A program made the translations under genes and the position numbers. Below the pieces are notes generated by a model. It did not search any database. It saw nothing but the letters and a program-made list of their open reading frames with translations, and was not told the origin of the DNA. Positions 358 to 54,036 of a DNA stretch of 64,000 bases are shown one piece after another. Source of the DNA: an uncultured Candidatus Saccharibacteria bacterium (lineage in GTDB: Bacteria; Patescibacteriota; Minisyncoccia; Phycocordibacterales; Zambryskibacteraceae); the NCBI GenBank assembly GCA_964355645.1, contig CAYHDI010000002.1:92522-156521 (forward strand). Reading direction: 5' to 3'. Position 1 is the stretch's first letter. Each line of letters begins with the position of its first letter.

Positions 358-429
358 GGCCCTATCGTCTATCGGTCAGGACACATCCTTCTCAAGGATG
401 GAAGCAGAGTTCGACTCTCTGTAGGGTCA
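358..429 (+). tRNA. tRNA-Glu (anticodon CUC), 72 nt
   Basis: Hand-folded cloverleaf. Acceptor is GGCCCUA/UAGGGUC with one G-U pair. D-arm GUCU-AUCGGUCA-GGAC matches E. coli tRNA-Glu (UCGUCUA...AGGACAC). Anticodon stem CAUCC/GGAUG with loop UUCUCAA gives anticodon CUC. Variable loop is 4 nt. T-arm is CAGAG-UUCGACU-CUCUG, discriminator A. Confidence 0.6.
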
Positions 430-1393: not shown

Positions 1394-4159
1394 GTGGCGA
1401 GGGTTTTTGCGTGTTATAATTTTCGTATGCCAAACGAGACTCTTTCCTTTAAAAACTCAGCTGAAGAATTGGAGCATCTGCGTTCCAAAGTTTTAGAGCA
1501 AGAACGGCGTTTAGAAAAATTTGAAATTAAAAAGGATAGGAATGAGGTCATTCGTGATACATTTCGAGATTATAAAGCCAATCAGGTTTTAAATTTAACC
1601 CAGGTAGAAAACAACGAAGCAAGGTTAAACGCTGAGGAAATTTTGAAAAAGGAAGCCGATAGACAACTTCAGGAAATGATGGGTATTACGGAGAAGAAAG
1701 GTATCCTACAGGCACTCATTACAGTAGAAAAGATGAATGGCTGGAAGCTCGAAGACGATTTTCATGATTATTTGGTGAATTTAGTCAGTGAAGGTCTAGC
1801 CCCAAAGGGGGTAGAAGAGAAAGGTCCCCTCTATCGGGCGCTCAAGATGACTTTGTTTGAAGTGGTTTTACCAGACACAGCCAATACTGATGAGAACAAA
1901 AAAAATCTTGTGACGCTTATCTCAAGCATGGAGCAGTTTTATGCTGGTATGCTTTCGGTGTCAGAAGAAAAAACCATGGGGAAAAATTATTTTGTTTTGG
2001 AAATCGCTAATAGTCATGGAAGCGAAGAATTTATTTTTTATGTATCTGTGCCGAATGAGAAGAAGATGCTCTTTGAGAAACATTTGCTCAGCGTTTTCCC
2101 CACAGCTCGATTGGTCGAAAGGAAAAGGGACTACAATATTTTCTCCGAAGGTAGCATCGCCTTGGCCTCTGTGGCTCGACTTTCATCTCCATCAGCCATG
2201 CCTCTGAAAACTTATGAATTGTTTGATTATGATCCACTAAATACTATTTTGAATAGTTTTTCGAAGATTCCGCGTGATGGTTCTGGGGCGGCCATACAGA
2301 TTATCTTTAATCCACAAGGCGATTTATATACCAAGAAATACCAGTTTGCTCTTAAACAAATAGAGAAGGGAGAGAAAACTTCTGAGGCCATTGCCGAACG
2401 TTCGGGTTTGGCTGAAGTCTCTCATGCTTTCGGAGAGTTTTTCACTTCGACCAAAAAGAAAGATGAGACAAAGCCAATCCAAATTGATTCATTGGCCATA
2501 GAGAAAATAAAGACCAAACTTCTTAGCCCCACAGTCTCAACAAATATTCGCGTGGCTGTTTCCGGTCGAACTCCACAGGAGGCCGAACAAATTCTCGCTG
2601 ATATTGAGTCGGGTTTTAATCAATTCGAACAGCCAGGAGTAAACAAGTTTGTTTTCAAAAGAGTTAAGCAGAATGCTGCTCCAAATTTCTTTAGGAATTT
2701 TTCTTTTAGACTCTTCGCCTTCGATCAAGTGATACCTTTGAATCTCAAAGAATTGACCTCAATCTTTCATTTTCATACTGGAGCGCTCTCTGGACGAAGT
2801 GAACTCAAACAAACCAAGGCTGTTGGCTCAGGCGCGCCTCTCGGCCTTCCTTCATCCGGCACTCTTCTTGGTTTGAATCGATTTAGAAACATTGAGACGA
2901 AGGTTTATCTTGCTCCTGAAGATCGTTTGAGACATTTCTACACTATTGGTCAGACAGGAACAGGTAAGTCCACCCTTTTGAAAAACATGATTATTCAAGA
3001 TATTCAAGCCGGCGAAGGTGTGTGTATGATTGATCCACACGGAGTAGACATCACCGATGTGCTCGCGAATATTCCGAAAGAACGATGGGACGATGTGATT
3101 TATTTTGATCCGGCTTCAACGGATAGGCCGATGGCTTTAAACATGCTCGAATATAATTCTAAATATCCAGAGCAGAAAACTTTCGTCGTGAATGAATTGT
3201 TTAATATTTTCCAAAAGCTATACGGCAAGGTGCCCGAATCAATGGGGCCAATGTTTGAACAATATTTTAGAAATGCCGCCATGCTCGTGATTGAAGACCC
3301 CGAATCCGGTTCTACCCTGCTTGATGTCTCACGAGTTCTCTCGAACAAAGAATATCGAACGCTCAAACTTTCAAAATGCCAGAACCCAATCATTGTTCAA
3401 TTTTGGAAGGAGGTAGCCGAGAAAGCTGGTGGGGAAACTTCACTCGCCAACATTGTGCCTTACATCACTTCCAAGTTCGATGTCTTCCTCGCGAACGACA
3501 TTATGCGTCCGATTATTGCCCAAGAGAAATCGTCTTTTGATTTTAGGGAAATAATGGATAAGAAAAAAATCCTTCTTGTTAATCTCTCGAAAGGAAGGCT
3601 GGGAGATATTAATGCGAACCTAATCGGACTTATCCTGGTGGGCAAAATTCTGATGGCTGCACTTTCTAGGACGGATTCAATGGGTATGCCTATGCCCCCG
3701 TTTTATTTGTATATTGATGAATTTCAAAATATCACGACGAATTCTATTGCCACTATTCTTTCGGAAGCCCGCAAATACAAGCTTTCACTCAATATTGCGC
3801 ATCAATACATCGCTCAACTTGAGGAAAATATTAAAAACGCTGTGTTTGGAAACGTCGGTACCTTGGCTACATTTCGAGTGGGTACAGATGATGCAGAGTA
3901 TTTGGAAAAACAATACGCGCCGGTTTTCACTGCGAGTGACATTGTAAATATTGATAACCGTAATGCTTATCTCAAGATGCTTGTGGATGGTAGACCGGTT
4001 AAACCGTTTAATCTTGAAACCCTAGCTCCGCCGGTAGGGGATTCGGCCCAAATAAACATGCTCAAAGAAACATCGTTTGAAAAATATGGAGGCAACAAAA
4101 TGGAAATAGAAGCCAAAATTCTCTTAAAGTATAATCCGTCTGTTCAAGTAGGAAAATAA
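1394..4159 (+). CDS. Large P-loop NTPase of the FtsK/HerA/TraG(VirD4)-like superfamily, no N-terminal TM. Probable start at M12, near 1427
   Basis: Walker A IGQTGTGKSTLLKNMI and Walker B YLYIDEFQNITT sit in the C-terminal half. A coiled-coil N-terminal region of about 450 aa is of unknown function. Confidence 0.55.
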   Translation: MARVFACYNFRMPNETLSFKNSAEELEHLRSKVLEQERRLEKFEIKKDRNEVIRDTFRDYKANQVLNLTQVENNEARLNAEEILKKEADRQLQEMMGITEKKGILQALITVEKMNGWKLEDDFHDYLVNLVSEGLAPKGVEEKGPLYRALKMTLFEVVLPDTANTDENKKNLVTLISSMEQFYAGMLSVSEEKTMGKNYFVLEIANSHGSEEFIFYVSVPNEKKMLFEKHLLSVFPTARLVERKRDYNIFSEGSIALASVARLSSPSAMPLKTYELFDYDPLNTILNSFSKIPRDGSGAAIQIIFNPQGDLYTKKYQFALKQIEKGEKTSEAIAERSGLAEVSHAFGEFFTSTKKKDETKPIQIDSLAIEKIKTKLLSPTVSTNIRVAVSGRTPQEAEQILADIESGFNQFEQPGVNKFVFKRVKQNAAPNFFRNFSFRLFAFDQVIPLNLKELTSIFHFHTGALSGRSELKQTKAVGSGAPLGLPSSGTLLGLNRFRNIETKVYLAPEDRLRHFYTIGQTGTGKSTLLKNMIIQDIQAGEGVCMIDPHGVDITDVLANIPKERWDDVIYFDPASTDRPMALNMLEYNSKYPEQKTFVVNELFNIFQKLYGKVPESMGPMFEQYFRNAAMLVIEDPESGSTLLDVSRVLSNKEYRTLKLSKCQNPIIVQFWKEVAEKAGGETSLANIVPYITSKFDVFLANDIMRPIIAQEKSSFDFREIMDKKKILLVNLSKGRLGDINANLIGLILVGKILMAALSRTDSMGMPMPPFYLYIDEFQNITTNSIATILSEARKYKLSLNIAHQYIAQLEENIKNAVFGNVGTLATFRVGTDDAEYLEKQYAPVFTASDIVNIDNRNAYLKMLVDGRPVKPFNLETLAPPVGDSAQINMLKETSFEKYGGNKMEIEAKILLKYNPSVQVGK

Positions 4160-4678: not shown

Positions 4679-5137
4679 TTAAAAGAAGGAATCTATGGCC
4701 TTTTTTACCAGCATTCCGTCGGCTCTGCCTTTAAGTTCTTTCATGACAAAACCGAGAAATCGGTTTTTGTCACCCCGCGTAGCCTCTGGCGTAGTGGGGT
4801 CAGCAAACTTATTTTTCACATATTCAATTATTTCTTGTTCACTCATCTGAGCTGGTAAATATTTCTCTAAGATTAATAGTTCGGCTTTTTCTGCGAGAGC
4901 CAAATCTGTTCGGTTTCCTTTCTCAAATTGCTCAATCGAGTCTTTTCTTTGTTTAACTTGTCGGCTTATCACATTCAGTACGTCTTCGTCCAAAAGTTCT
5001 TCATCGGGTTTTCTACGCTTGGCTACTAGTTCGTTGGTGAAAGCCGAGACAAGCCCGCGCACCACTCCGAGTCGCACCGTATCCTTGGCCAGCATGGCCT
5101 CCTTTATTTCTCCTTTGATTTGTTGATGTAATGACAT
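4679..5137 (-). CDS. yqeY: GatB/YqeY domain protein
   Basis: Full-length similarity to the YqeY family: ...GDKNRFLGFVMKELKGRAD... Confidence 0.75.
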   Translation of the reverse strand: MSLHQQIKGEIKEAMLAKDTVRLGVVRGLVSAFTNELVAKRRKPDEELLDEDVLNVISRQVKQRKDSIEQFEKGNRTDLALAEKAELLILEKYLPAQMSEQEIIEYVKNKFADPTTPEATRGDKNRFLGFVMKELKGRADGMLVKKAIDSFF

Positions 5138-23720: not shown

Positions 23721-25157
23721 TTATTTCAATTTCAAACCCAATTCCTTGAGTTGTTTTTCTGAGGCTTCGGATGGAGAATCCATCATCAAATCCTTGCCCT
23801 CGCCGTTTTTAGGGAAAGCCATCACTTCTCGAATATTTGGCTCATTTTCAAGCATCATCACGAGACGATCAAGCCCCCACGCGATACCTCCGTGTGGTGG
23901 TGTACCAGAACGAAAAGCTTCAAGCATGTAGAAAAGATTTTTCTCTACTTCTTCTTTGGAAACTCCCATTATTTCGTATACTGCAAGCAGGGCTTCGGGT
24001 TTGTGATTCCTGATACTCCCTCCACCAATCTCATTGCCATTCAAAATAATATCGTATTGATTGGTGAGAATATTCGGGATGTTTCTTTTGTTCAATAAAT
24101 CTTCTGCGAATTCGGGTTGAGCTCCAGAAAACGGATTATGAGTGAAGGTCCATTCACCTGTGGCTGTCGGGTTATCAGATTTATCTGTTTTCTCGAAAAA
24201 TGGAAAGTCTACGACCCAGCAGAAAGAGAGAAGATCTTTGTCATCCTTATTCTTTCTCAAATCTGGTCTATCCGTCCCGTATTTTTTCACAGCCTCCTTA
24301 TAAGAAATTCTGGGGAAAGGAATTTCCTGAATCTTTTTGTCTGGATAAAGTTCTGTGACCAAAGCGATGAGAAGCTTCTCATTGAGCTCCATCACATCTT
24401 CTCTCTCCACAAAACTCATTTCAAGGTCGAGTTGAGTGAATTCCGGTTGTCTGTCACCACGAAGGTCTTCATCGCGCATACATTTGGCCATTTGGAAATA
24501 TCTTTCCATACCCGAAGCCATGAAAAGTTGTTTGTATTGCTGAGGAGCTTGAGGCAAAGCATAGAATTTCCCTTTCTCTAATCTTGAAGGCACGAGGAAA
24601 TCTCTCGCTCCTTCAGCGGTGGATTTAGAAAGAATCGGTGTCTCAATTTCAATAAAATTTTCTTGATCAAGAAAATCTCTAATAAACTTTACCACCTTGT
24701 GTCGGTGTCTCAGATTTTTCTGCATTCTTGGTCGGCGAAGATCAAGGTAGCGATATTTCAATCTATTTTCCTCACCAATTTCCTTTCCATCACTAGATAC
24801 ATCGAAAGCTGGAGTTTCGGCTTTATTAAGAATTTCAATTTCTGTCACCTCAAGCTCTAAATCCCCATTCAAGACGTCTTTGTTGATGTTTTTCTCGGGT
24901 CTTTTGTTCACTATTCCAGTAATTTTCAAAACCCACTCTGGACGCATCTTCCCGGCAATTTCCATTGCCGAGGATCCTCGACTTTCAGTCGGGACTTCTG
25001 CTTTCGCAGGCAAAACTACGCATTGAACCTTGCCGGTCATATCGCGCATGTCGAAGAAAACCATCTTGCCTTGATCACGACGAATATCTACCCATCCTGA
25101 AATGGAAACTTCTTTCCCTACATGTTTTTCTAGATCTTTAATATAAGTTCTATTCAT
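23721..25157 (-). CDS. aspS: Aspartate--tRNA ligase (archaeal/eukaryal-type short form, 478 aa)
   Basis: Class II motifs FRDEDLRGDRQPEFTQLDLEMSF, GGGSIR and GLDRLVMML. Confidence 0.85.
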   Translation of the reverse strand: MNRTYIKDLEKHVGKEVSISGWVDIRRDQGKMVFFDMRDMTGKVQCVVLPAKAEVPTESRGSSAMEIAGKMRPEWVLKITGIVNKRPEKNINKDVLNGDLELEVTEIEILNKAETPAFDVSSDGKEIGEENRLKYRYLDLRRPRMQKNLRHRHKVVKFIRDFLDQENFIEIETPILSKSTAEGARDFLVPSRLEKGKFYALPQAPQQYKQLFMASGMERYFQMAKCMRDEDLRGDRQPEFTQLDLEMSFVEREDVMELNEKLLIALVTELYPDKKIQEIPFPRISYKEAVKKYGTDRPDLRKNKDDKDLLSFCWVVDFPFFEKTDKSDNPTATGEWTFTHNPFSGAQPEFAEDLLNKRNIPNILTNQYDIILNGNEIGGGSIRNHKPEALLAVYEIMGVSKEEVEKNLFYMLEAFRSGTPPHGGIAWGLDRLVMMLENEPNIREVMAFPKNGEGKDLMMDSPSEASEKQLKELGLKLK

Positions 25158-26109
25158 TGTGATGAATTAATCCAACTTTCTTCCTAACTTCTATCATTTT
25201 CTCATGAACTATTTTTCTCATTTTCTCTCCTCCTTCTCGAATAATTTTATCCACTTCATCACCCTTCTTCTCCCACTCGGCTCGTCTATCTCTCATTGGT
25301 CCTATCACGGCCTTAATATCTTTGATTAATTCTTCCTTTAAATCCTTGTATTTGCCTTTTTTTTCTGCATACAACTTCTCAAGTTCCACCTCGGGTCTAA
25401 AGAGTTTGTGAAGCTCGAATACGTTTTTTGGAATATCTGTGCCCGAATCTGTGACTATGCTCATCACTGCTTTCTCTATTTCTTCATTTGTGGCAAAGAG
25501 TGGAATGGTGTTGTTGTAGCTCTTACTCATCTTTTGTCCATCTGTCCCGATAATTGTACCCACACTTTCAATAATCAAAGGTTCAGGTCGAACGAAAGTT
25601 TCTCCATACGCATTATTAAATTTATCTGCAACGTCACCGGCGATTTCTACATGTTGTTTTTGATCAGAACCCACGGGAACAAGTTCAGCATCGTGCACCA
25701 GGATATCCGCCGACATGAGAATCGGATAATTGAAGGTTCCAACATTCACATCTTTCTTCTTGGTTTCAGCATCCTTGAACGCATGTGCGCGAGAGAGGTA
25801 AGGAACAGTAACCAAGCATTCAAATATCCAAGCGAGTTCAGCCACATGCGGGATATCTGATTGAAGAAAAATGGTCACTTTCTCTGGGTCAAGTCCGGCT
25901 CCTAGATAATCCAAAACTAGATTCTTAGTATATTCAGAAAGCTTGTTTGGGTCCTGCGTGGTCGTAAGCGCATGCATGTTGGCCATGAAAAACCTGCATT
26001 CATACTTATCCTGTAAATCAATCCATTGTTTGAGTGCCCCAAAATAGTTTCCAATATGAAGCGGACCGGATGGCTGCATACCTGAAACCAGGATTTTCTT
26101 CTTTGACAT
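25150..26109 (-). CDS. trpS: Tryptophan--tRNA ligase
   Basis: HIGH-like region GPLHIGNYFG and KMSKS. Confidence 0.9.
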   Translation of the reverse strand: MSKKKILVSGMQPSGPLHIGNYFGALKQWIDLQDKYECRFFMANMHALTTTQDPNKLSEYTKNLVLDYLGAGLDPEKVTIFLQSDIPHVAELAWIFECLVTVPYLSRAHAFKDAETKKKDVNVGTFNYPILMSADILVHDAELVPVGSDQKQHVEIAGDVADKFNNAYGETFVRPEPLIIESVGTIIGTDGQKMSKSYNNTIPLFATNEEIEKAVMSIVTDSGTDIPKNVFELHKLFRPEVELEKLYAEKKGKYKDLKEELIKDIKAVIGPMRDRRAEWEKKGDEVDKIIREGGEKMRKIVHEKMIEVRKKVGLIHHNE

Positions 26110-26146
26110 ACGAAAATAATACCAAAATAGGCTCTATTTTGAAAGC

Positions 26147-26533
26147 CTAGAATAGGAGAATGGCAAGAGGCGCTATGAGCCAAATGGTGAAGATTTGTTC
26201 AGGAGCAAAAACTGGATTCAAATAGGCTGGGAAGTGATAGATGGAAGCAATAGGCACAATGTGATACAAAATAGATATAATTAAACCAATGATTGAGACA
26301 ACAAGCAGAATAATTTTTAAATATCTTTTGAATCCCCTATCGGAGTAAACAGAAATGTGTTTGTTTACCACATAAAATATTGGCAAGAAAAAGATAATGA
26401 GAATCATAATGTGATTCCAGAAAAGTTGATCAGAACCTTTGAGAATCGTCAAAGTCTTCACAAAAAACGCTTGAGTGTACAAAAGTATCGCGAGATAAAG
26501 AGAAATAAGTGCAGAGACTAATTTATTTTCCAT
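26147..26533 (-). CDS. Integral membrane protein (about 4 TM), hypothetical
   Basis: Hydrophobicity pattern. Immediately downstream of the C39-like peptidase. Confidence 0.45.
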   Translation of the reverse strand: MENKLVSALISLYLAILLYTQAFFVKTLTILKGSDQLFWNHIMILIIFFLPIFYVVNKHISVYSDRGFKRYLKIILLVVSIIGLIISILYHIVPIASIYHFPAYLNPVFAPEQIFTIWLIAPLAILLF

Positions 26534-26550
26534 GAATTAATTATATCCTA

Positions 26551-27066
26551 TTATTTTATAGTAATTAATAATGGGCAAAACAACAAGTGGTCTCTTAATT
26601 GAATGACAGCTTTTTGTAATACGGAACTTTCCACAATCCTACTTTCCCCGAACCACGGATCGAATATCTTATATGAATTATCATCATTAACAGATTCAAC
26701 GATTATAAAGTGTGGGGCGTGAGGGTAAATTCCTTCTCCAGCATCAATATATAATATGTAAGGAGTGGGTGTTGAATTCATTAAGTTAGAATCTATCGTT
26801 CGGGAGATAAGTTTAATATTTTTATTATCAAAATTAGTCTTCAAATCCTTAAGAAAGTATTCATTATCAACATACACATCAAAGTCCTCGCGGTACTTTT
26901 CAGAAAAAATATTCAGGACTTTTAATGCATAACTTATCTTTGTTTTGATGTCCTCAACAGCAAGTTCTAATTCCTCCCCTTCTGTTGCTTCACCTTTTGC
27001 AAGTAATAATAAACAAACAGGTAAACAGCCTTCCAAGGTTTCTTGTTTGTATGGCTTGAAATTCAT
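26551..27066 (-). CDS. C39-like (papain-fold) cysteine peptidase domain protein
   Basis: N-terminal QETLEGCLPVC (Gln...Cys) and C-terminal HAPHFIIV...DPW (His/Asp) match the Peptidase_C39_2 pattern. Confidence 0.5.
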   Translation of the reverse strand: MNFKPYKQETLEGCLPVCLLLLAKGEATEGEELELAVEDIKTKISYALKVLNIFSEKYREDFDVYVDNEYFLKDLKTNFDNKNIKLISRTIDSNLMNSTPTPYILYIDAGEGIYPHAPHFIIVESVNDDNSYKIFDPWFGESRIVESSVLQKAVIQLRDHLLFCPLLITIK

Positions 27067-27084
27067 ATCAATAATTTTAGCATT

Positions 27085-27168
27085 TTATACCCCCTCTTTT
27101 TTAAGTTCCTCAACCAACCTCTTAGCTTCCTTAGAGAGTTTGTCGGATATGTAGATAATTTTCCTCAT
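27085..27168 (-). CDS. 27-codon sORF re-encoding the DnaJ C-terminal tail, translationally coupled (ATGA overlap) to the upstream DUF4325 gene
   Basis: Product MRKIIYISDKLSKEAKRLVEELKKEGV matches the DnaJ C-terminus ...[22 protein letters not shown]. Its start codon overlaps the stop of the 27165-27479 gene. Confidence 0.3.
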   Translation of the reverse strand: MRKIIYISDKLSKEAKRLVEELKKEGV

Positions 27169-27479
27169 AATCCCATCTGCTTAACGGCTCGATTTACTAT
27201 ATCAGCCACATAGTCTTTTCGTTCCCTCGCTATTACGGGAAGTGCTATGCGCACAGAGGCATTATTCGTAGGCAGTAACTCAACTTTTCCATAATTAAAG
27301 TCGGCAAGGCGTGTAATGAATTCATCAAGCCAAGAAGGATTAACTGTGAGGACATCATCAAAGTCGATCTGAACAGGCAGATCTTTATTTAGCTGAGGAC
27401 GAATTGCATTAAAAGCTTCCTGTCCATTTGGTCGTCCTACTAGCACGTTACCGAATTTTTTAAGATGAATTGTTTGCAT
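27165..27479 (-). CDS. DUF4325-like (STAS-fold, anti-sigma-antagonist-like) protein
   Basis: IHLKKFGNVLVGRPNGQEAF...VQIDFDDVLTVNPSWLDEFITRL fits the DUF4325 pattern (IkikdfG..lgtR..G......lDFdgV..issSF.DEf). Confidence 0.5.
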   Translation of the reverse strand: MQTIHLKKFGNVLVGRPNGQEAFNAIRPQLNKDLPVQIDFDDVLTVNPSWLDEFITRLADFNYGKVELLPTNNASVRIALPVIARERKDYVADIVNRAVKQMGL

Positions 27480-27486
27480 AATGATT

Positions 27487-28215
27487 TTAGAATTTTATCA
27501 CACAATATGTACCTCGCACATTTTGCTTCGCCATACCAATGGTGAGATAGCCCGGTTTCTCAACTGGAACAGTAACCACCCCAATACCAGATCGGTAAAA
27601 AAGTCCCACTTCACGTGATTCAAGAACTCTAAGCACAACCTTCAATCCTTGGCCCCTCTTTTCTGGATTTCTTCCAGAAATAATTTCTGTAAAAGCAACT
27701 TTCAAAGCCTCTTGATCATCAACAATGGACGGCCTTACTTGTCTGAGGGTTGCTTTTACGCCTCGACCACGATCAGCTATCACTATAACCCTCTTTTTAA
27801 GATCATAGGCGTAGAATGTGCCCGAAATATCTGGCCAATTGCCTACATTATGAGCAAAAGAATTGTCACCAATTTCGCTGGCAATCAACGTGATGAGTGA
27901 ATCCAATGCTTCTGAAAATCGACTGTCCCCCTGGAGTTCCATGCCCATTTTTGTTACTCGACTGGTAAAACGATCAGGCAACTCACAGTAATAATCAATA
28001 GGAAGTTCAGGTGGTATCGCGCTTGTTGCCCATACCATCCCTAACGCCTCTATGTCTACAGCAAATTTTTTAAGATCCACTAAGTGGTAATATCGCTGAT
28101 TTCCAGCACTTCTTTCTGAGAGAAGTTTCCCGGATTTTTCCCAATTGCGAAGAGTCTGGGAAGTGACTCCAAGAATTTTAGCAGCTTCACTTATACGTAC
28201 TTTACTATCAATCAT
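27487..28215 (-). CDS. MerR-type HTH fused to a GHKL (RsbW/SpoIIAB-like) ATPase/kinase domain
   Basis: MerR HTH ISEAAKILGVTSQTLRNWEKSGKL. GHKL N-box EIGDNSFAH, G1 DRGRG and G2 GQGL. Confidence 0.6.
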   Translation of the reverse strand: MIDSKVRISEAAKILGVTSQTLRNWEKSGKLLSERSAGNQRYYHLVDLKKFAVDIEALGMVWATSAIPPELPIDYYCELPDRFTSRVTKMGMELQGDSRFSEALDSLITLIASEIGDNSFAHNVGNWPDISGTFYAYDLKKRVIVIADRGRGVKATLRQVRPSIVDDQEALKVAFTEIISGRNPEKRGQGLKVVLRVLESREVGLFYRSGIGVVTVPVEKPGYLTIGMAKQNVRGTYCVIKF

Positions 28216-28224
28216 AAAGGTATT

Positions 28225-28292
28225 TTATAAGTTTATACCCTAAACTTATAAAAGTCAAGTTAACTTTATAAGTTAATACCCTAAACCTATAA
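28225..28292. promoter_or_regulatory. Two copies of a 27-bp palindromic operator-like site (TTATAAGTT-N9-AACTTATAA) upstream of the HTH-GHKL gene
   Basis: 28225-28251 is a perfect 9-bp inverted repeat with a 9-bp spacer. 28266-28292 is a near-identical second copy. Both lie between the dnaJ stop and the HTH gene ATG. Confidence 0.4.
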
Positions 28293-28303
28293 TGAACATT
28301 GTA

Positions 28304-29233
28304 CTATATCCCCTCTTTTTTCAATTCTTCAATCAATTTCTTTGCCTCCTTGGATAATTTCTCGGGAATATTGACTGTGATGCGGACATACAAATCACCC
28401 CGTCTGTTCCCGCCTTGAGGTACACCCTTGCCTTTCACCCTAAGAATTGTTCCTGAATTTGTGCCAGCGGGAATCTTGAGTTCTATTGTCCCATCCAATA
28501 TTTGAATATTCTTTGTGGCTCCCAGAAGTGCATCCGAAAGTTTAATATTCAAATCCATGATTAAGTTGTAGCCTTCTTTTCTAATATTCGGGTGTCTTTT
28601 CACATGGACTTTGATATACAAATCTCCGGGTTGACCATTCTCAATCATTTCTCCCATTCCATCCATGCGAATCATCTGGCCACTCTCTATGCCCGCAGGA
28701 ATTGCAATGTTCACTTCTTTCTGTTTAACCAGTCGGCTGTTAATGTTGACCTTGCGTGTCACTCCGAAAACCGATTCGTAGAAAGTTATTTCTATATCCA
28801 CTTGAACATCACGGCCTCGACGCATTCTTCGCCCTCCGAACATACTGCTCAAAATATCATTCAAATCAATATTTTCGAATCCTTGAGCATTACCACTGAA
28901 TCCTGAGAAATCAAATCCTCCGAAACTCTGTCCAGCATTGAACCCGCCGAAGCCCGAGGCTCCAGCATTAAAGTTCCCGCTCCCTACGGCATCATATTGA
29001 GCGCGTTTGTTTTTGTCTCCGAGAACAGAATAAGCTTCACTGGCTTCTTTGAATCTTGCTTCATTTCCACCCTTTTTGTCCGGATGATGTTCGTGAGCCA
29101 ATTTGCGAAAAGCTTTCTTTATTTCGTCTTCTGTCGCGGTTTTAGAAACGCCGAGAATTTTATAGTAATCTTTAGACATTAGTTTCAGGAGCTGGACCCG
29201 TTCCCTCTGCTCCCTTATCTTTGAATTCAGCAT
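28304..29233 (-). CDS. dnaJ: DnaJ-class chaperone lacking the zinc finger (CbpA/type II-like). Likely start [11 protein letters not shown], near 29179
   Basis: J domain with HPD (HHPDKK), a G/F-rich region and C-terminal beta-domains. No CxxCxGxG repeats. Confidence 0.8.
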
Positions 29234-31088
29234 CCTTTACGGTTTCATCTTTAGGGGTCTCATTGCTGACTTGTTCTGAGCCTGACGAAGGATTTTTTTG
29301 CAAGTATTCACCGATTTTAGAAAGTTCAGCAGAAAGTGCTTCGGTCGCTGTCTTAATCGATTCGATTGTACCTGATTCGCGCTCTTTTTTAAGAGCGTTG
29401 ATTTTCTCATTCACTGCATTTTTAATATCATCGGGAATGTTTGCATTATCCTTCAATGATTTCTCTGCAGTATAAATCAATTGCTCAGACATATTCTTCG
29501 CATCAACCAAATCTTTTTTCTTCGCATCATCGCTGGCATTAGCCTCGGCTTCCTTCTGCATACGCGCTATTTCATCTTTCGAAAGGCCCGAAGAAGCTTC
29601 AATACGAATGGATTGTTCCTTGCCCGTGGTTTTATCCTTGGCCTTCACAGAGAGGATTCCATTCGCATCAACGTCGAATGACACCTCGACCTGAGGCATA
29701 CCACGAGAGGCTGGAGGAATTCCATCAAGAATGAATCTGCCGAGCGATTTGTTGTCTCCGGCCATAGTCCTATCACCTTGAACAATATGTATTTCAACAG
29801 AAGTTTGATTGTCAGCGGCAGTTGAAAATACTTGAGATTTAGATGAAGGAATAGTTGTATTTCTTTCGATTAATTTTGTGGCCACACCTCCCATTGTTTC
29901 AATTCCGAGAGATAGAGGGATAACATCAAGGAGCAAGATGTCTTTCACATCACCCGAAAGGATTCCTCCTTGGATAGCTGCACCGAGAGCGACCACTTCA
30001 TCAGGATTAATGGATTTGTTCGGTTCTCGGTTAAAGAATTTCTTCACTGCATCCGAGATAGCCGGCATGCGAGTTTGTCCACCAACGAGAATCACTTCGT
30101 TCAAATCAGCTATCTTGAACGGAGAAGCCTCCATAGCTCGCTTGGTAATAGTCATCGCTCGGTCAATGAATTCTGCTGTTAGTTCTTCGAGTTTGGCTCG
30201 GCTCATTTTTAATAGCAAATGCTTCGGTCCAGAGGCATCAGAAGTAATGAATGGAATATTTATTTCTGTTTCTGTGGCTGTTGAAAGTTCAATCTTGGCC
30301 TTCTCTGCGGCTTCATCCAAACGTTGAAGAGCTAGAGCATCATTACGGACATCAATACCCGATTCCTTCTTATATTCATCAGCAATCCAATTGATAACCT
30401 TTTGGTCAATATCTTTACCGCCGAGGTGTGAATCTCCGTCAGTCGATTTCACTTCGACCACATCATCACCCACTTCCAGAATGGAAATATCAAATGTTCC
30501 TCCACCAAAATCGAAAACAGCAATCTTCTCGTTTTTCTTTTTATCAAATCCGTAAGCCAAAGCAGCAGCCGTCGGTTCATTGATAATTCGCTTCACATCA
30601 AGTCCGGCAATCTGACCGGCATCCTTTGTGGCTTTGCGTTGCGCATCATTAAAATAAGCAGGGACAGTGATGACCGCTTCAGTAATTTTTTCTCCCAATT
30701 TAGTTTCTGCGTCGGCCTTCAATTTCTGAAGAATCATCGCCGAGATTTCTTCTGGTCTTTGATCCTTGTCTCCAAGATGAACGAGTACCCCGCCATCTGT
30801 TGAACTTTTCACTTCGAATGGAACGGTAGCCTTGTCTTTCTGAACAGCCGGGTCAGAGAAAATATGGCCGATAAATCGCTTGATTCCGAAAACAGTGTTC
30901 TTCGGATTGGTGACCGCCTGTCTGCGTGCGAGAAGTCCAACCATACGCTCACCGGTTTTAGAAATAGCCACAATAGAAGGAGTGGTTCGTGCTCCCTCGG
31001 AGTTTTCAATTATTTTCGGGGCACCTACCTCCATGATGGCTATCGCCGAGTTTGTTGTTCCTAAATCTATTCCAATGATTTTTGCCAT
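29172..31088 (-). CDS. dnaK: Chaperone DnaK (Hsp70)
   Basis: [18 protein letters not shown] and full-length Hsp70. Confidence 0.95.
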
Positions 31089-31156: not shown

Positions 31157-31693
31157 TTATTCTTCAACAAATTCGCCTATTTTGACCTTTGCTGGTCTCA
31201 AAACACGACCATTTAGAATATAGCCTTCTTGTAGAACCTCAAGGATTTTGTGATCATCGTCTTTTGCTTCGGTTTTAATTGTCCCTACTGCTTCATGAAA
31301 GTTCGGATCAAACTTTTCTCCCATTGGATTTATTTCCTCAAGGCCATAATTTTTAAGAGTCTTAAGTAACATTGAATGTATTTGCTCGACGCCTTTATCC
31401 CCATGGGCCACGGCCAACGATAACCCATCGAGAACTGGTAGTAGTTCATTTATTAATCCTGCATTCGCAAATTTCAAAAATTCCACCTTGGCTTCCTCAT
31501 CTCTTTTTCTCAAGTTCACAAAATCAGCTTGAGCTCTCTGCCAACCATCCATATTTTCCTTGACCTTCGCCTCGGCTTCTTTCAGCTTCTCTTTGAGTTT
31601 TTTAATGGTGTCACCTTGATGTTCGTCAGTTAAGACTGAATCATCAATCCCCGTCTCGTTATCGAGCGTTATGTCGTCATCTTTGTCTGTCAT
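31157..31693 (-). CDS. grpE: Nucleotide exchange factor GrpE
   Basis: C-terminal GrpE beta-domain ...GYILNGRVLRPAKVKI. Confidence 0.85.
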   Translation of the reverse strand: MTDKDDDITLDNETGIDDSVLTDEHQGDTIKKLKEKLKEAEAKVKENMDGWQRAQADFVNLRKRDEEAKVEFLKFANAGLINELLPVLDGLSLAVAHGDKGVEQIHSMLLKTLKNYGLEEINPMGEKFDPNFHEAVGTIKTEAKDDDHKILEVLQEGYILNGRVLRPAKVKIGEFVEE

Positions 31694-53752: not shown

Positions 53753-53823
53753 TGGACCTATCGAGAATCGGACTCGAGTTTCGTCATTGCGAACGACGCG
53801 TCGTACCACTAGACCATAGGCCC
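53753..53823 (-). tRNA. tRNA-Ala (anticodon CGC), 71 nt, atypical T-loop
   Basis: Hand-folded. Acceptor GGGCCUA/UAGGUCC has the G3:U70 pair diagnostic of tRNA-Ala. Discriminator is A73. Anticodon stem CGUCG/UGACG with loop UUCGCAA. T-stem UCGAG/CUCGA with loop UCCGAUU, which has C at position 55. Confidence 0.45.
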
Positions 53824-53963: not shown

Positions 53964-54036
53964 GTGCACCCTGTAGGGATCGAACCTACGACCTTTCCGA
54001 TGTGAACGGAATGTTCTACCACTGAACTAAGGGTGC
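53964..54036 (-). tRNA. tRNA-Val (anticodon CAC), 73 nt
   Basis: Hand-folded. Acceptor GCACCCU/AGGGUGC, D-arm GUUC-AGUGGUA-GAAC, anticodon loop UUCACAU, T-arm GUAGG-UUCGAUC-CCUAC, discriminator A73. Confidence 0.8.

Follow-up and report, generated by a model that had tools for sequence, protein, structure and literature searches.

Why does a genome carry a second copy of the end of dnaJ? We ask this question for a stretch of 64,000 nucleotides (nt), the window, from a Zambryskibacteria-like genome of the Patescibacteria found in groundwater, among others in the Hainich samples ERR3654040 and ERZ1292621. In this stretch dnaJ is followed by a cassette of two genes, and the cassette is followed by a small open reading frame (sORF) of 27 codons that resembles the end of dnaJ. 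The original prediction read the arrangement as the footprint of an element that integrated into the 3' end of dnaJ and brought a replacement 3' end along. It also took the sORF to be kept as a coding frame. Our answer is a different one for the sORF. It is probably the relic of a dnaJ end, left behind by the recombination of a two-gene cassette without a recombinase, and not a maintained gene.

The repeat at the end of dnaJ

The sORF lies at positions 27085-27168 on the minus strand, encodes MRKIIYISDKLSKEAKRLVEELKKEGV and ends with the stop codon TAA. As had been reported, its start codon and the TGA stop of the DUF4325 gene overlap as ATGA. The peptide matches the C-terminus of DnaJ at 17 of 27 positions. 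Over its last 23 positions we count 16 identities, and not the 17 given earlier; the last 21 positions also hold 16.

On the DNA level the similarity is the top direct repeat of the region. The two units (27086-27155 and 28305-28374) are 70 nt long, 76% identical and spaced by 1219 nt. Over the full 84 nt the copies are 68% identical (57/84); the earlier estimate was about 70%. Their local alignment has a score of 57 (z = 17.8 compared to shuffled sequences). The repeat brackets exactly the gene pair of the cassette, a MerR-ATPase gene and a DUF4325 gene, and thus marks the cassette boundary, as proposed.

The proximal copy (28304-28374, minus strand) consists of the last ~22 codons of dnaJ and its stop. 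The body of this copy is native-like, the stop codon TAG is atypical. The distal copy (27085-27155, minus strand) is the relic of the dnaJ 3' end: codons 6-27 of the sORF and the stop TAA. In front of the relic is a junction of six codons that do not belong to dnaJ (MRKIIY; 27151-27168, minus strand), including the ATG that arises from the TTA-TGA end of the DUF4325 gene. Cassettes at other sites lack this junction sequence behind DUF4325. The copies agree without a mismatch over at most 12 nt. This run lies at 28310-28321 in the proximal copy (CCCCTCTTTTTT on the plus strand, AAAAAAGAGGGG in gene orientation) and at 27091-27102 in the distal copy.

The Pfam domain DnaJ_C stops at residue 273 of the 292 residues of DnaJ. 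Therefore the repeat covers the C-terminal extension past C-terminal domain II, which we take to be the dimerisation helix known from DnaJ and Sis1 structures. The five amino acid replacements between the copies are all conservative (P/S, E/D, K/R, I/V and I/V). Across the 21 shared codons the Nei-Gojobori method counts eight synonymous and seven non-synonymous differences. The differences had been described as mostly synonymous. This is true per site (proportion of differing synonymous sites pS = 0.64, of non-synonymous sites pN = 0.14), but not for the raw counts.

How could such a relic look like a gene? A DUF4325 gene that ends in TTA-TGA makes an ATG, and the six junction codons would by chance stand in the frame of the relic. 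The sORF is most likely a fortuitous reading frame over a relic dnaJ end. In the relic region we find no significant RNA structure (fold z = -0.62) and no Rfam match.

In assembly ERZ1292621, from the source population, the contigs break inside the cassette and at the relic: L082 ends at codon 40 of DUF4325 and L178 begins inside the sORF. Low coverage or strain heterogeneity at the locus could cause these breaks.

Empty sites and the spread of the cassette

A scan of species-representative genomes yielded 80 related loci. None of them (0/80) has the MerR-ATPase gene, the DUF4325 gene or the C39-like gene, which follows the sORF in the window, within 7 kb of dnaJ. The closest relatives are L001, L002, L003 and L013, with DnaJ proteins 69-75% identical to that of the window. 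In these four, a membrane-protein gene starts 7-10 nt past the dnaJ stop, and trpS and aspS come next where the contig extends (L001, L003). Relatives with an empty site therefore exist, as the original prediction had suspected. The empty site is not an uninterrupted dnaJ-trpS junction, however; the order is dnaJ, membrane protein, trpS. Compared to it the window has two extras: the gene pair bracketed by the repeat and the C39-like gene past the relic.

Within the window's own population we found no such site. All contigs with the exact MerR-ATPase or the exact C39-like protein show the same arrangement, without an empty-site strain variant. A cassette-free site, in which a dnaJ with a relic-type tail adjoins the C39-like gene, was not found either.

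Elsewhere the cassette is widespread. The 242-amino-acid (aa) MerR-ATPase has 622 homologues at E <= 0.001. The best 120 of these 622 are 61-94% identical and belong to Komeili-, Uhr-, Magasanik- and Paceibacteria. A profile search gives 92 clusters at E <= 1e-30, and 452 metagenome stretches encode a relative. The genomic contexts are unrelated: the cassette occurs after jag/yidC near dnaA, among genes of toxin-antitoxin (TA) or defence type, at xth and at comM. It is horizontally exchanged among Patescibacteria, or Candidate Phyla Radiation (CPR) bacteria.

Scars at other genes

For every cassette we compared the flanks, 400-700 nt to either side, and checked the identity of the target genes with Pfam. 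A flanking direct repeat is present in 10 of 53 distinct cassette loci, among them the window, L083 and L175. Over all loci the repeats are 34-189 bp long.

At comM the repeat again concerns the 3' end. In L119 (comM/Mg-chelatase) it measures 189 bp, and the relic is interrupted by an in-frame TGA and lacks a start codon. In L134 it spans ~135 nt (45 codons) on the protein level and 55 nt in a DNA alignment. In L117 it covers 34 nt, or 45 nt (15 codons) on the protein level. L134 has two peculiarities. Its proximal comM end (3084-3321) looks frameshifted and the distal copy (4831-4983) reads cleanly. This distal copy also lies 342 nt past DUF4325, with extra sequence between them.

At xth both ends of the gene are affected. 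The 36-bp repeat of L139 copies the 3' end with five synonymous and no non-synonymous differences, and the unit there has one extra gene. The 63-bp repeat of L124 copies the 5' end: a 24-codon N-terminal stub stands before the cassette and the functional gene after it. Two repeats lie outside these genes, in non-coding DNA with a terminator (L100, 69 bp, 68/69 identical) and probably in non-coding DNA (L153, 66 bp). From the DUF4325 stop to the distal copy it is 11-28 nt in the clearest cases, and the sequence in between is site-specific. Duplicates are not obligatory, since in L174 a cassette that is 92% identical lies upstream of xth without a flank duplicate.

Taken with the mobile contexts and the lack of the unit at the 80 related loci, the comM and xth duplicates bear out the idea of an element footprint in the 3' end of dnaJ. 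The further likening of the repeats to attL and attR is apt only as an analogy. A direct repeat does flank the cassette, but there is no integrase in the cassette and no annotated recombinase within 8 kb.

Three carriers at dnaJ

Three genomes carry the cassette after dnaJ: the window, L083 (the same as L084, L085 and L094) and L175. In the window the DUF4325 gene is followed by the sORF and the C39-like gene. In L083, whose MerR protein is 94% identical to that of the window, a 27-codon sORF with the same ATGA overlap is followed by His_Phos_1 and other genes. In L175 the MerR protein is 84% identical to that of the window and only a relic of 34 nt is left. L175 is the sister of L083 (synonymous divergence dS between the hosts 0.9-1.3). 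A 49-nt gap reaches from the stop of DUF4325 and the overlapping ATG through the junction into the relic, of which the first 9-10 shared codons are gone. The remaining relic is AGTTGATTGAGGAATTGAAGAAAGAGGGGATATAA, and DUF4325 ends there in ...GLVD*. Hence the sORF is not conserved everywhere the locus is. It had been thought to be kept as a coding frame; it is intact in the window and in L083, and broken in L175.

The two intact sORFs are identical at 23 of 27 residues, with a ratio of non-synonymous to synonymous divergence (dN/dS) of 0.04. The junction after DUF4325 is the same at 21 of 24 nt. Within the six junction codons there are two non-synonymous changes (I to T and Y to C) and one synonymous change.

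Hosts and cassettes tell different stories. Between the window and L083 the dS of host genes is 2.2 for grpE, 1.56 for dnaK and 1.65 for trpS, and dnaJ is saturated. The cassette genes have a dS of only 0.36 (MerR gene) and 0.53 (DUF4325). A comparison with L175 gives a like picture. Moreover, all three dnaJ cassettes are about equally related (dS 0.36-0.70), whereas their hosts are not. Along an alignment of the window with L083, identity is ~0.6 up to the cassette promoter (28255), where it leaps to ~0.9, a level held to 27170. It is 0.65-0.78 in the relic and at background beyond.

The MerR halves of L083 and L175 form a mosaic. These two loci are 0.93-0.98 identical in the dnaJ tail, 0.73-0.78 in the 5' half of the MerR gene, and 0.95-1.0 in its 3' half and in DUF4325. 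Such incongruent and mosaic divergence means that the cassette was exchanged piecewise after the hosts diverged.

The origin of the two copies

Which of the two copies is native? The tail attached to dnaJ in the window matches the cassette-free relatives L001 and L002 at 54/63 and 53/63 nt. The relic matches L001 at 44/63 nt (44-45/63 for L001 and L002) and any tail we compared at 50/63 or fewer. Over the first 45 nt the relic agrees with its own dnaJ tail at 32/45 positions, the dnaJ tail with L001 at 40/45. The stop codons suggest the opposite. Cassette-free relatives end dnaJ with TAA in 19 of 20 cases and with TAG in none (0/20). All three carriers have TAG on the functional dnaJ and TAA on the relic.

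Judged by these matches, the functional dnaJ tail of the window looks native-like and only its TAG stop looks imported. Hence the element probably did not supply a wholesale replacement 3' end, as first supposed; the imported-looking part is the stop codon. A native-like dnaJ body with an imported-looking TAG, together with a foreign-like relic with TAA, would put a crossover close to the segment's 3' end.

We propose the following course of events. In an ancestor of the Zambryskibacteria-like genome, recombination would have placed the cassette within the last ~21 codons of dnaJ. The incoming DNA would have carried its own allelic copy of these codons, taken from the dnaJ of an earlier host. 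After the crossover dnaJ would stay whole as the proximal copy, and the other allele would be left behind the cassette. If the exchange was reciprocal and fell close to the 3' end of the segment common to both copies, for instance in the 12-nt run AAAAAAGAGGGG, the functional dnaJ would be native except for its last codons. In the relic everything but the last codons would come from the donor, and native sequence would begin there and continue downstream. The two copies would have diverged in working dnaJ genes of separate lineages, and later gene conversion may have added to the pattern.

There are two candidate routes for such an event. The first is homologous recombination, in two possible forms. 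A circle with the dnaJ tail and the cassette could integrate by a single RecA-type crossover of the Campbell kind. Alternatively, a double crossover could use dnaJ as the left arm and the relic as a portable right arm. The double crossover would explain why the same cassette-relic junction stands before different downstream genes in the window and L083. The second route is a site-specific recombinase that would act in trans.

The meaning of the synonymous bias

The synonymous bias between the copies had been taken as a sign that both stay under coding constraint. The data do not support this reading. The ratio pN/pS is 0.08-0.22 in every pair of functional gene and relic. The same bias appears in relics that cannot function, such as that of comM with its in-frame TGA and missing start, and the 5' stub of xth. 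Since the bias is equally strong in non-functional relics, it cannot be read as constraint on the relic. The loss of the ATG in L175 argues against constraint, too.

As a null model we assumed that the copies are identical at insertion and that the relic is neutral afterwards. The P value is 0.07 for the window, 0.04 for L083, 2e-4 for L119, 1.4e-3 for L124 and 5e-8 for the pooled pairs. In the window alone the bias is thus too slight to demonstrate constraint. It fits copies that would be alleles, diverged in working genes of different lineages and joined later. A similar pattern is described for icd and icdC at prophage e14, where most differences between the copies are synonymous or conservative (PMC13626634).

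Gene conversion probably adds to the bias. In L083 the copies share an identical run of 29 nt. Four lysine codons of the sORF co-vary with the dnaJ tail of the same genome. Copies within a genome are also closer to each other than copies between genomes. For L083 they agree at 55/63 nt, and for comM the identity is 0.89 and 0.81 within genomes versus 0.78-0.80 between them.

Alternative explanations

Several observations weigh against a recombined cassette that leaves a relic. Identical runs between copies are short, at most 12 nt in the window and 12-30 nt over the loci. An identity of 12 nt is short for RecA-mediated exchange, and runs of this kind argue against efficient exchange by RecA. 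The route through a recombinase in trans has its own difficulty: there is no conserved att-like sequence, and no recombinase was identified in the cassette or within 8 kb. Furthermore, 43 of 53 cassette loci have no flank duplicate. The window and L083 both have an intact sORF of the same length and with the same ATGA, despite the saturated dS of their hosts. Finally, both tail copies match at only 48-50/63 nt between the window and L083 and lack the similarity seen in the cassette. The tail was therefore not simply transferred together with the cassette in its latest exchange.

The strongest competitor is a single ancient insertion in the ancestor of the window, L083 and L175. The relic would be non-functional and held similar to dnaJ by gene conversion, and the interior of the cassette would have been swapped later. 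We consider this possible, yet clearly less probable than a recombined allele. The shared junction of the window and L083 speaks for it, and so does the pairing of a TAG stop in the functional copy with a TAA stop in the relic, common to all three carriers. So do the closeness of copies within genomes and the 29-nt identical run in L083. A neighbour-joining tree built on three proteins weakly pairs the window with L083. It cannot split this pair from L001, since the three identities are 0.82, 0.82 and 0.81, and so it does not speak against a single insertion. A single vertical insertion of this age would need selection or gene conversion to keep the sORF intact. However, the relic of the window differs from its own tail far more than that tail differs from L001 (32/45 versus 40/45), so that conversion has not homogenised it. 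A single insertion also leaves the same type of scar at five or more other target sites unexplained, and requires that L001 lost the cassette precisely or never gained it.

Could the relic instead be maintained, either by the element or by the host? In the first case we would have a novel type of mobile cassette that lacks a recombinase and spreads by carrying short allelic copies of conserved housekeeping gene ends (dnaJ, comM, xth) as portable integration homology, and the relic would be kept by the element. We regard this as unlikely. If true, the relic would open new genomes to the cassette regardless of the downstream sequence. The DNA-binding ATPase of the cassette and the two or three palindromes at its left end might then join in the recombination. 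From the dnaJ relic, a 27-aa peptide might even be made that imitates the dimerisation helix of DnaJ.

In the second case the sORF would be a translationally coupled micro-protein, a free copy of the C-terminal DnaJ helix that is kept by selection and may, for example, modulate DnaJ. This is unlikely, too. Its best arguments are the survival of the 27 codons and the ATGA in two such distant hosts and the dN/dS of 0.04 over a peptide with 23 of 27 residues unchanged. In addition, the gene caller of the Joint Genome Institute (JGI) annotated the copy in L083, and a terminator between DUF4325 and the sORF was not found. However, L175 keeps the cassette without the ATG and the first part of the relic, and the six codons that do not stem from dnaJ change non-synonymously. 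An equally low pN/pS in comM and xth relics that are unable to function removes the force of the ratio. The co-varying lysine codons and the 29-nt run in L083 suggest gene conversion and not selection on the peptide.

A duplication made de novo is very unlikely. The copies would stem from a long target-site duplication, or from a tandem duplication with a deletion, and would have drifted since. The 69-bp repeat of L100 with its one mismatch is what one would expect, and several independent repeats fall between 61 and 70 bp (window, L083, L124, L153 and L100). Against it, the pairs have too few non-synonymous differences under the null model above (pooled, L119 and L124), repeat lengths vary from 34 to 189 bp and stop codons differ systematically between copies. 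We know of no transposase family that gives duplications of this size. We rejected a target-site duplication of the transposon type, given these lengths, the allele-like divergence and the lack of terminal repeats.

We reject the idea that the MerR gene is a resident HspR-like heat-shock repressor and the repeat an incidental local duplication: hspR classically follows dnaJ in the dnaK operon and the MerR helix-turn-helix (HTH) weakly matches the NCBIfam model (2.1e-07), but the score of 30.8 bits falls far short of the cut-off of 105 with the HTH alone matching, the operator palindrome stands only before the cassette (not upstream of grpE or dnaK, nor in the rest of the 64 kb), the gene is missing from all 80 related loci, and its close homologues adjoin unrelated genes.

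The two-gene cassette

The cassette is ~1.2 kb long. Besides a gene for a MerR-HTH/GHKL-like ATPase and one for a STAS-like DUF4325 protein, it has a promoter-like sequence of its own and two operator palindromes.

The first gene (27487-28215, minus strand) encodes a protein of 242 aa with an N-terminal HTH of the MerR/excisionase type and a GHKL-like ATPase domain. The HTH matches Pfam PF00376 at residues 7-43 (1.5e-12; 47.5 bits, gathering threshold 28.2). The C-terminal domain has the motifs EIGDNSFAHN, ADRGRGV and GRNPEKRGxGLK, with EIGDNSFAHN, ADRGRG and GRxPExRGxGLK invariant in the alignment, and no Pfam HATPase match. An AlphaFold2 model of the protein (mean confidence pLDDT 73.6) gives weak Foldseek matches to the ATPase domains of Hsp90, TRAP1, TopoII and GyrB, with E values from about 1e-3 to 3e-2. 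The HTH part weakly matches the HTHs of BldC, MerR and Xis. From these weak fold matches the C-terminal domain is a predicted, GHKL-like ATPase. Many proteins of ~190-200 aa (P0152, P0160, P0161 and others) match only positions ~55-242 of the profile. The GHKL-like domain thus occurs apart from the MerR HTH as well, a sign of a larger family that is still uncharacterised.

The second gene (27165-27479, minus strand) encodes a STAS-like DUF4325 protein of 104 aa. Its match to Pfam PF14213 is marginal (3.7e-05; 23.8 bits, cut-off 23.0). It follows the first gene in 76 of 80 metagenome loci; in the other four the contig is too short past the MerR gene.

The left end of the cassette (28216-28303, minus strand) holds two palindromes and a promoter-like sequence. 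The two putative operators are 25 nt long (TATAAGTTT-N7-AAACTTATA; 28226-28250 and 28267-28291). They are the only such sites in the whole window, with none upstream of grpE or dnaK. The promoter-like sequence TTGACT-17-TAAACT (28258 to 28230) overlaps the proximal palindrome. Two or three palindromes (T[T/A]ATAGGTTT-N7-9-AAAC[C/T]TATAA) and a TTGACT promoter are kept at the left end across cassettes, and 52 of the 53 distinct loci have an operator half-site ahead of the MerR gene. At the right ends half-sites are no more common than in control windows. Hence the cassette has no terminal repeats. Palindromes that occur only at the cassette's own promoter would fit autoregulation.

Pfam, NCBIfam and PADLOC reveal no recombinase in the cassette, and the genes called up to 8 kb away on both sides include none. 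The only part that PADLOC recognises is the HTH (mad1, MTase_II), and it finds no known defence system in the cassette. Relatives of the cassette protein were not found among the viral contigs of IMG/VR, and we rejected a phage origin on this ground.

What does the cassette do? A TA-like or conflict module is a reasonable guess by analogy, because of the autoregulatory layout, the TA and defence neighbourhoods and the coupling of DUF4325 to PIN.4 genes. DUF4325 genes are reported to be transcriptionally coupled to PIN.4 VapC-like genes (PMC5499597). The papers found on DUF4325 do not deal with a module of MerR-HTH/GHKL and DUF4325. The pair is a conserved but uncharacterised module.

Copies of the cassette often lie amid conflict-type genes. 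In L092 (1-12729) the neighbours are DUF4238, SLFN/AlbA_2-HATPase_c_4, DUF2726 and nSTAND3, in L100 (1-5105) AbiEii and possibly HNH-like genes, and in L086 (1-11134) a zeta toxin, CopG and HNH.

Comparison with known systems

The type of scar is already known from icd of E. coli K-12, the site of e14 and phage 21. There, too, an element has inserted at the 3' end of a housekeeping gene. The functional copy extends into this element, and a fragment of the C-terminus (the pseudogene icdC) remains on its far side. In contrast, e14 is a 15-kb prophage with an integrase and a defined att core, whereas here we have a 1.2-kb gene pair without a recombinase. The shared segment in our case is only ~65 nt, and the cassette family carries the ends of several genes (dnaJ, comM, xth), depending on the site.

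Elements of the SXT/R391 group are integrase-dependent integrative and conjugative elements of ~100 kb that integrate into the 5' end of prfC. They resemble the cassette in that the element supplies a new gene end and the target stays functional, which mirrors the 5' case of xth in L124. Unlike them, the cassette is small and has no integrase.

In insertion-duplication of the Campbell type, a circle with a fragment of a gene end integrates, duplicates the fragment and leaves one intact copy. The element needs no recombinase and the repeat is as long as the fragment carried, which fits a range of 34-189 bp. Yet this process is known mainly as a laboratory tool or from plasmid cointegrates. Moreover, our copies are 76-89% identical with runs of 12-30 nt, which is marginal for RecA.

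For the cassette itself, TA-like modules offer a parallel: two small co-directional genes, an HTH, palindromic operators at the own promoter, and a patchy, horizontally shuffled distribution, often in TA or defence neighbourhoods. However, PADLOC matches only the HTH of the cassette, and to our knowledge no toxin activity has been described for a MerR-HTH/GHKL protein. SpoIIAB/RsbW and SpoIIAA/RsbV are partner-switching pairs of a GHKL kinase and a STAS protein. Here, too, a gene for a GHKL-type nucleotide-binding protein adjoins a small STAS-like gene. In contrast to these pairs, the GHKL domain is fused to a MerR HTH, there is no sigma factor partner, and the weak fold matches are to the ATPase domains of Hsp90, GyrB and TopoII.

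By itself the dnaJ duplicate is an ordinary type of scar, and shows that the dnaK operon of the window genome was invaded. What is new is a recombinase-free cassette in CPR bacteria that repeatedly carries allelic ends of different housekeeping genes. The genomes of CPR bacteria are tiny and seem to hold few classical mobile elements, and these bacteria are believed to rely on the uptake of DNA. If the cassette does spread by the homology it carries, or by mobilisation in trans, it would offer a concrete way into the question of how accessory genes travel in these bacteria. The locus also calls for caution in sORF discovery: a tidy, synonymously drifting small reading frame can be a by-product of allele recombination.

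The surrounding genes

All genes between 23.7 and 31.7 kb lie on the minus strand. The operon has the canonical order grpE (31157-31693), dnaK (29172-31088) and dnaJ (28304-29182), all on the minus strand. The dnaJ gene stops with TAG, and its likely start at 29182 overlaps the end of dnaK by 11 nt. DnaJ is a full-length reading frame with the DnaJ and DnaJ_C domains (Pfam 1.5e-23 and 2.5e-45), matches to the DnaJ models of NCBIfam, and the usual C-terminal motif. It is made up of a J domain, a G/F-rich region and DnaJ_C without the CxxCxGxG zinc finger, as in CbpA or class B proteins. A DnaJ without the zinc finger is common to relatives of similar length, and here it nevertheless lies within the canonical operon. 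The spacer from dnaJ to the MerR gene is 88 nt.

Past the relic lies the gene for a C39-like peptidase of 171 aa (26551-27066, minus strand), whose match to Pfam Peptidase_C39 is weak and below the cut-off. None of the 80 related loci (0/80) has it, and there are only eight homologues in 5.8 billion proteins. Two of these, P0123 and P0128, occur in other contexts and neither adjoins dnaJ. One of two homologues adjoins SelR/PilM, the other a polyketide-cyclase-like gene. Since its homologues occur in other contexts, we view the gene as an independent accessory gene. It is a separate, lineage-specific insertion between the relic and the membrane-protein gene, outside the cassette.

The membrane-protein gene (26147-26533, minus strand; 128 aa) is the first gene after dnaJ in the cassette-free L001, L002, L003 and L013. 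Beyond it follow trpS and then aspS. The interval between dnaJ and trpS (25150-28303 in the window) is a hotspot of variable content in this clade, with zero to nine genes over L001-L080 and L083; at some loci the membrane-protein gene is its only gene. In L083 it holds ~9 genes, including His_Phos_1, Peptidase_S51, an HTH gene and several unknowns.

Positions 27066-27089 and 28206-28229 form a direct match of 24 nt with 75% identity (TATAAAAT..ATTGATA). It joins the DNA just past the stop of the relic, into the start of the C39-like gene, with the start region of the MerR gene, and may be due to chance in AT-rich DNA. Rfam matches in the window are confined to three tRNA genes, at 358-429 (plus strand), 53753-53823 (minus strand) and 53965-54036 (minus strand).

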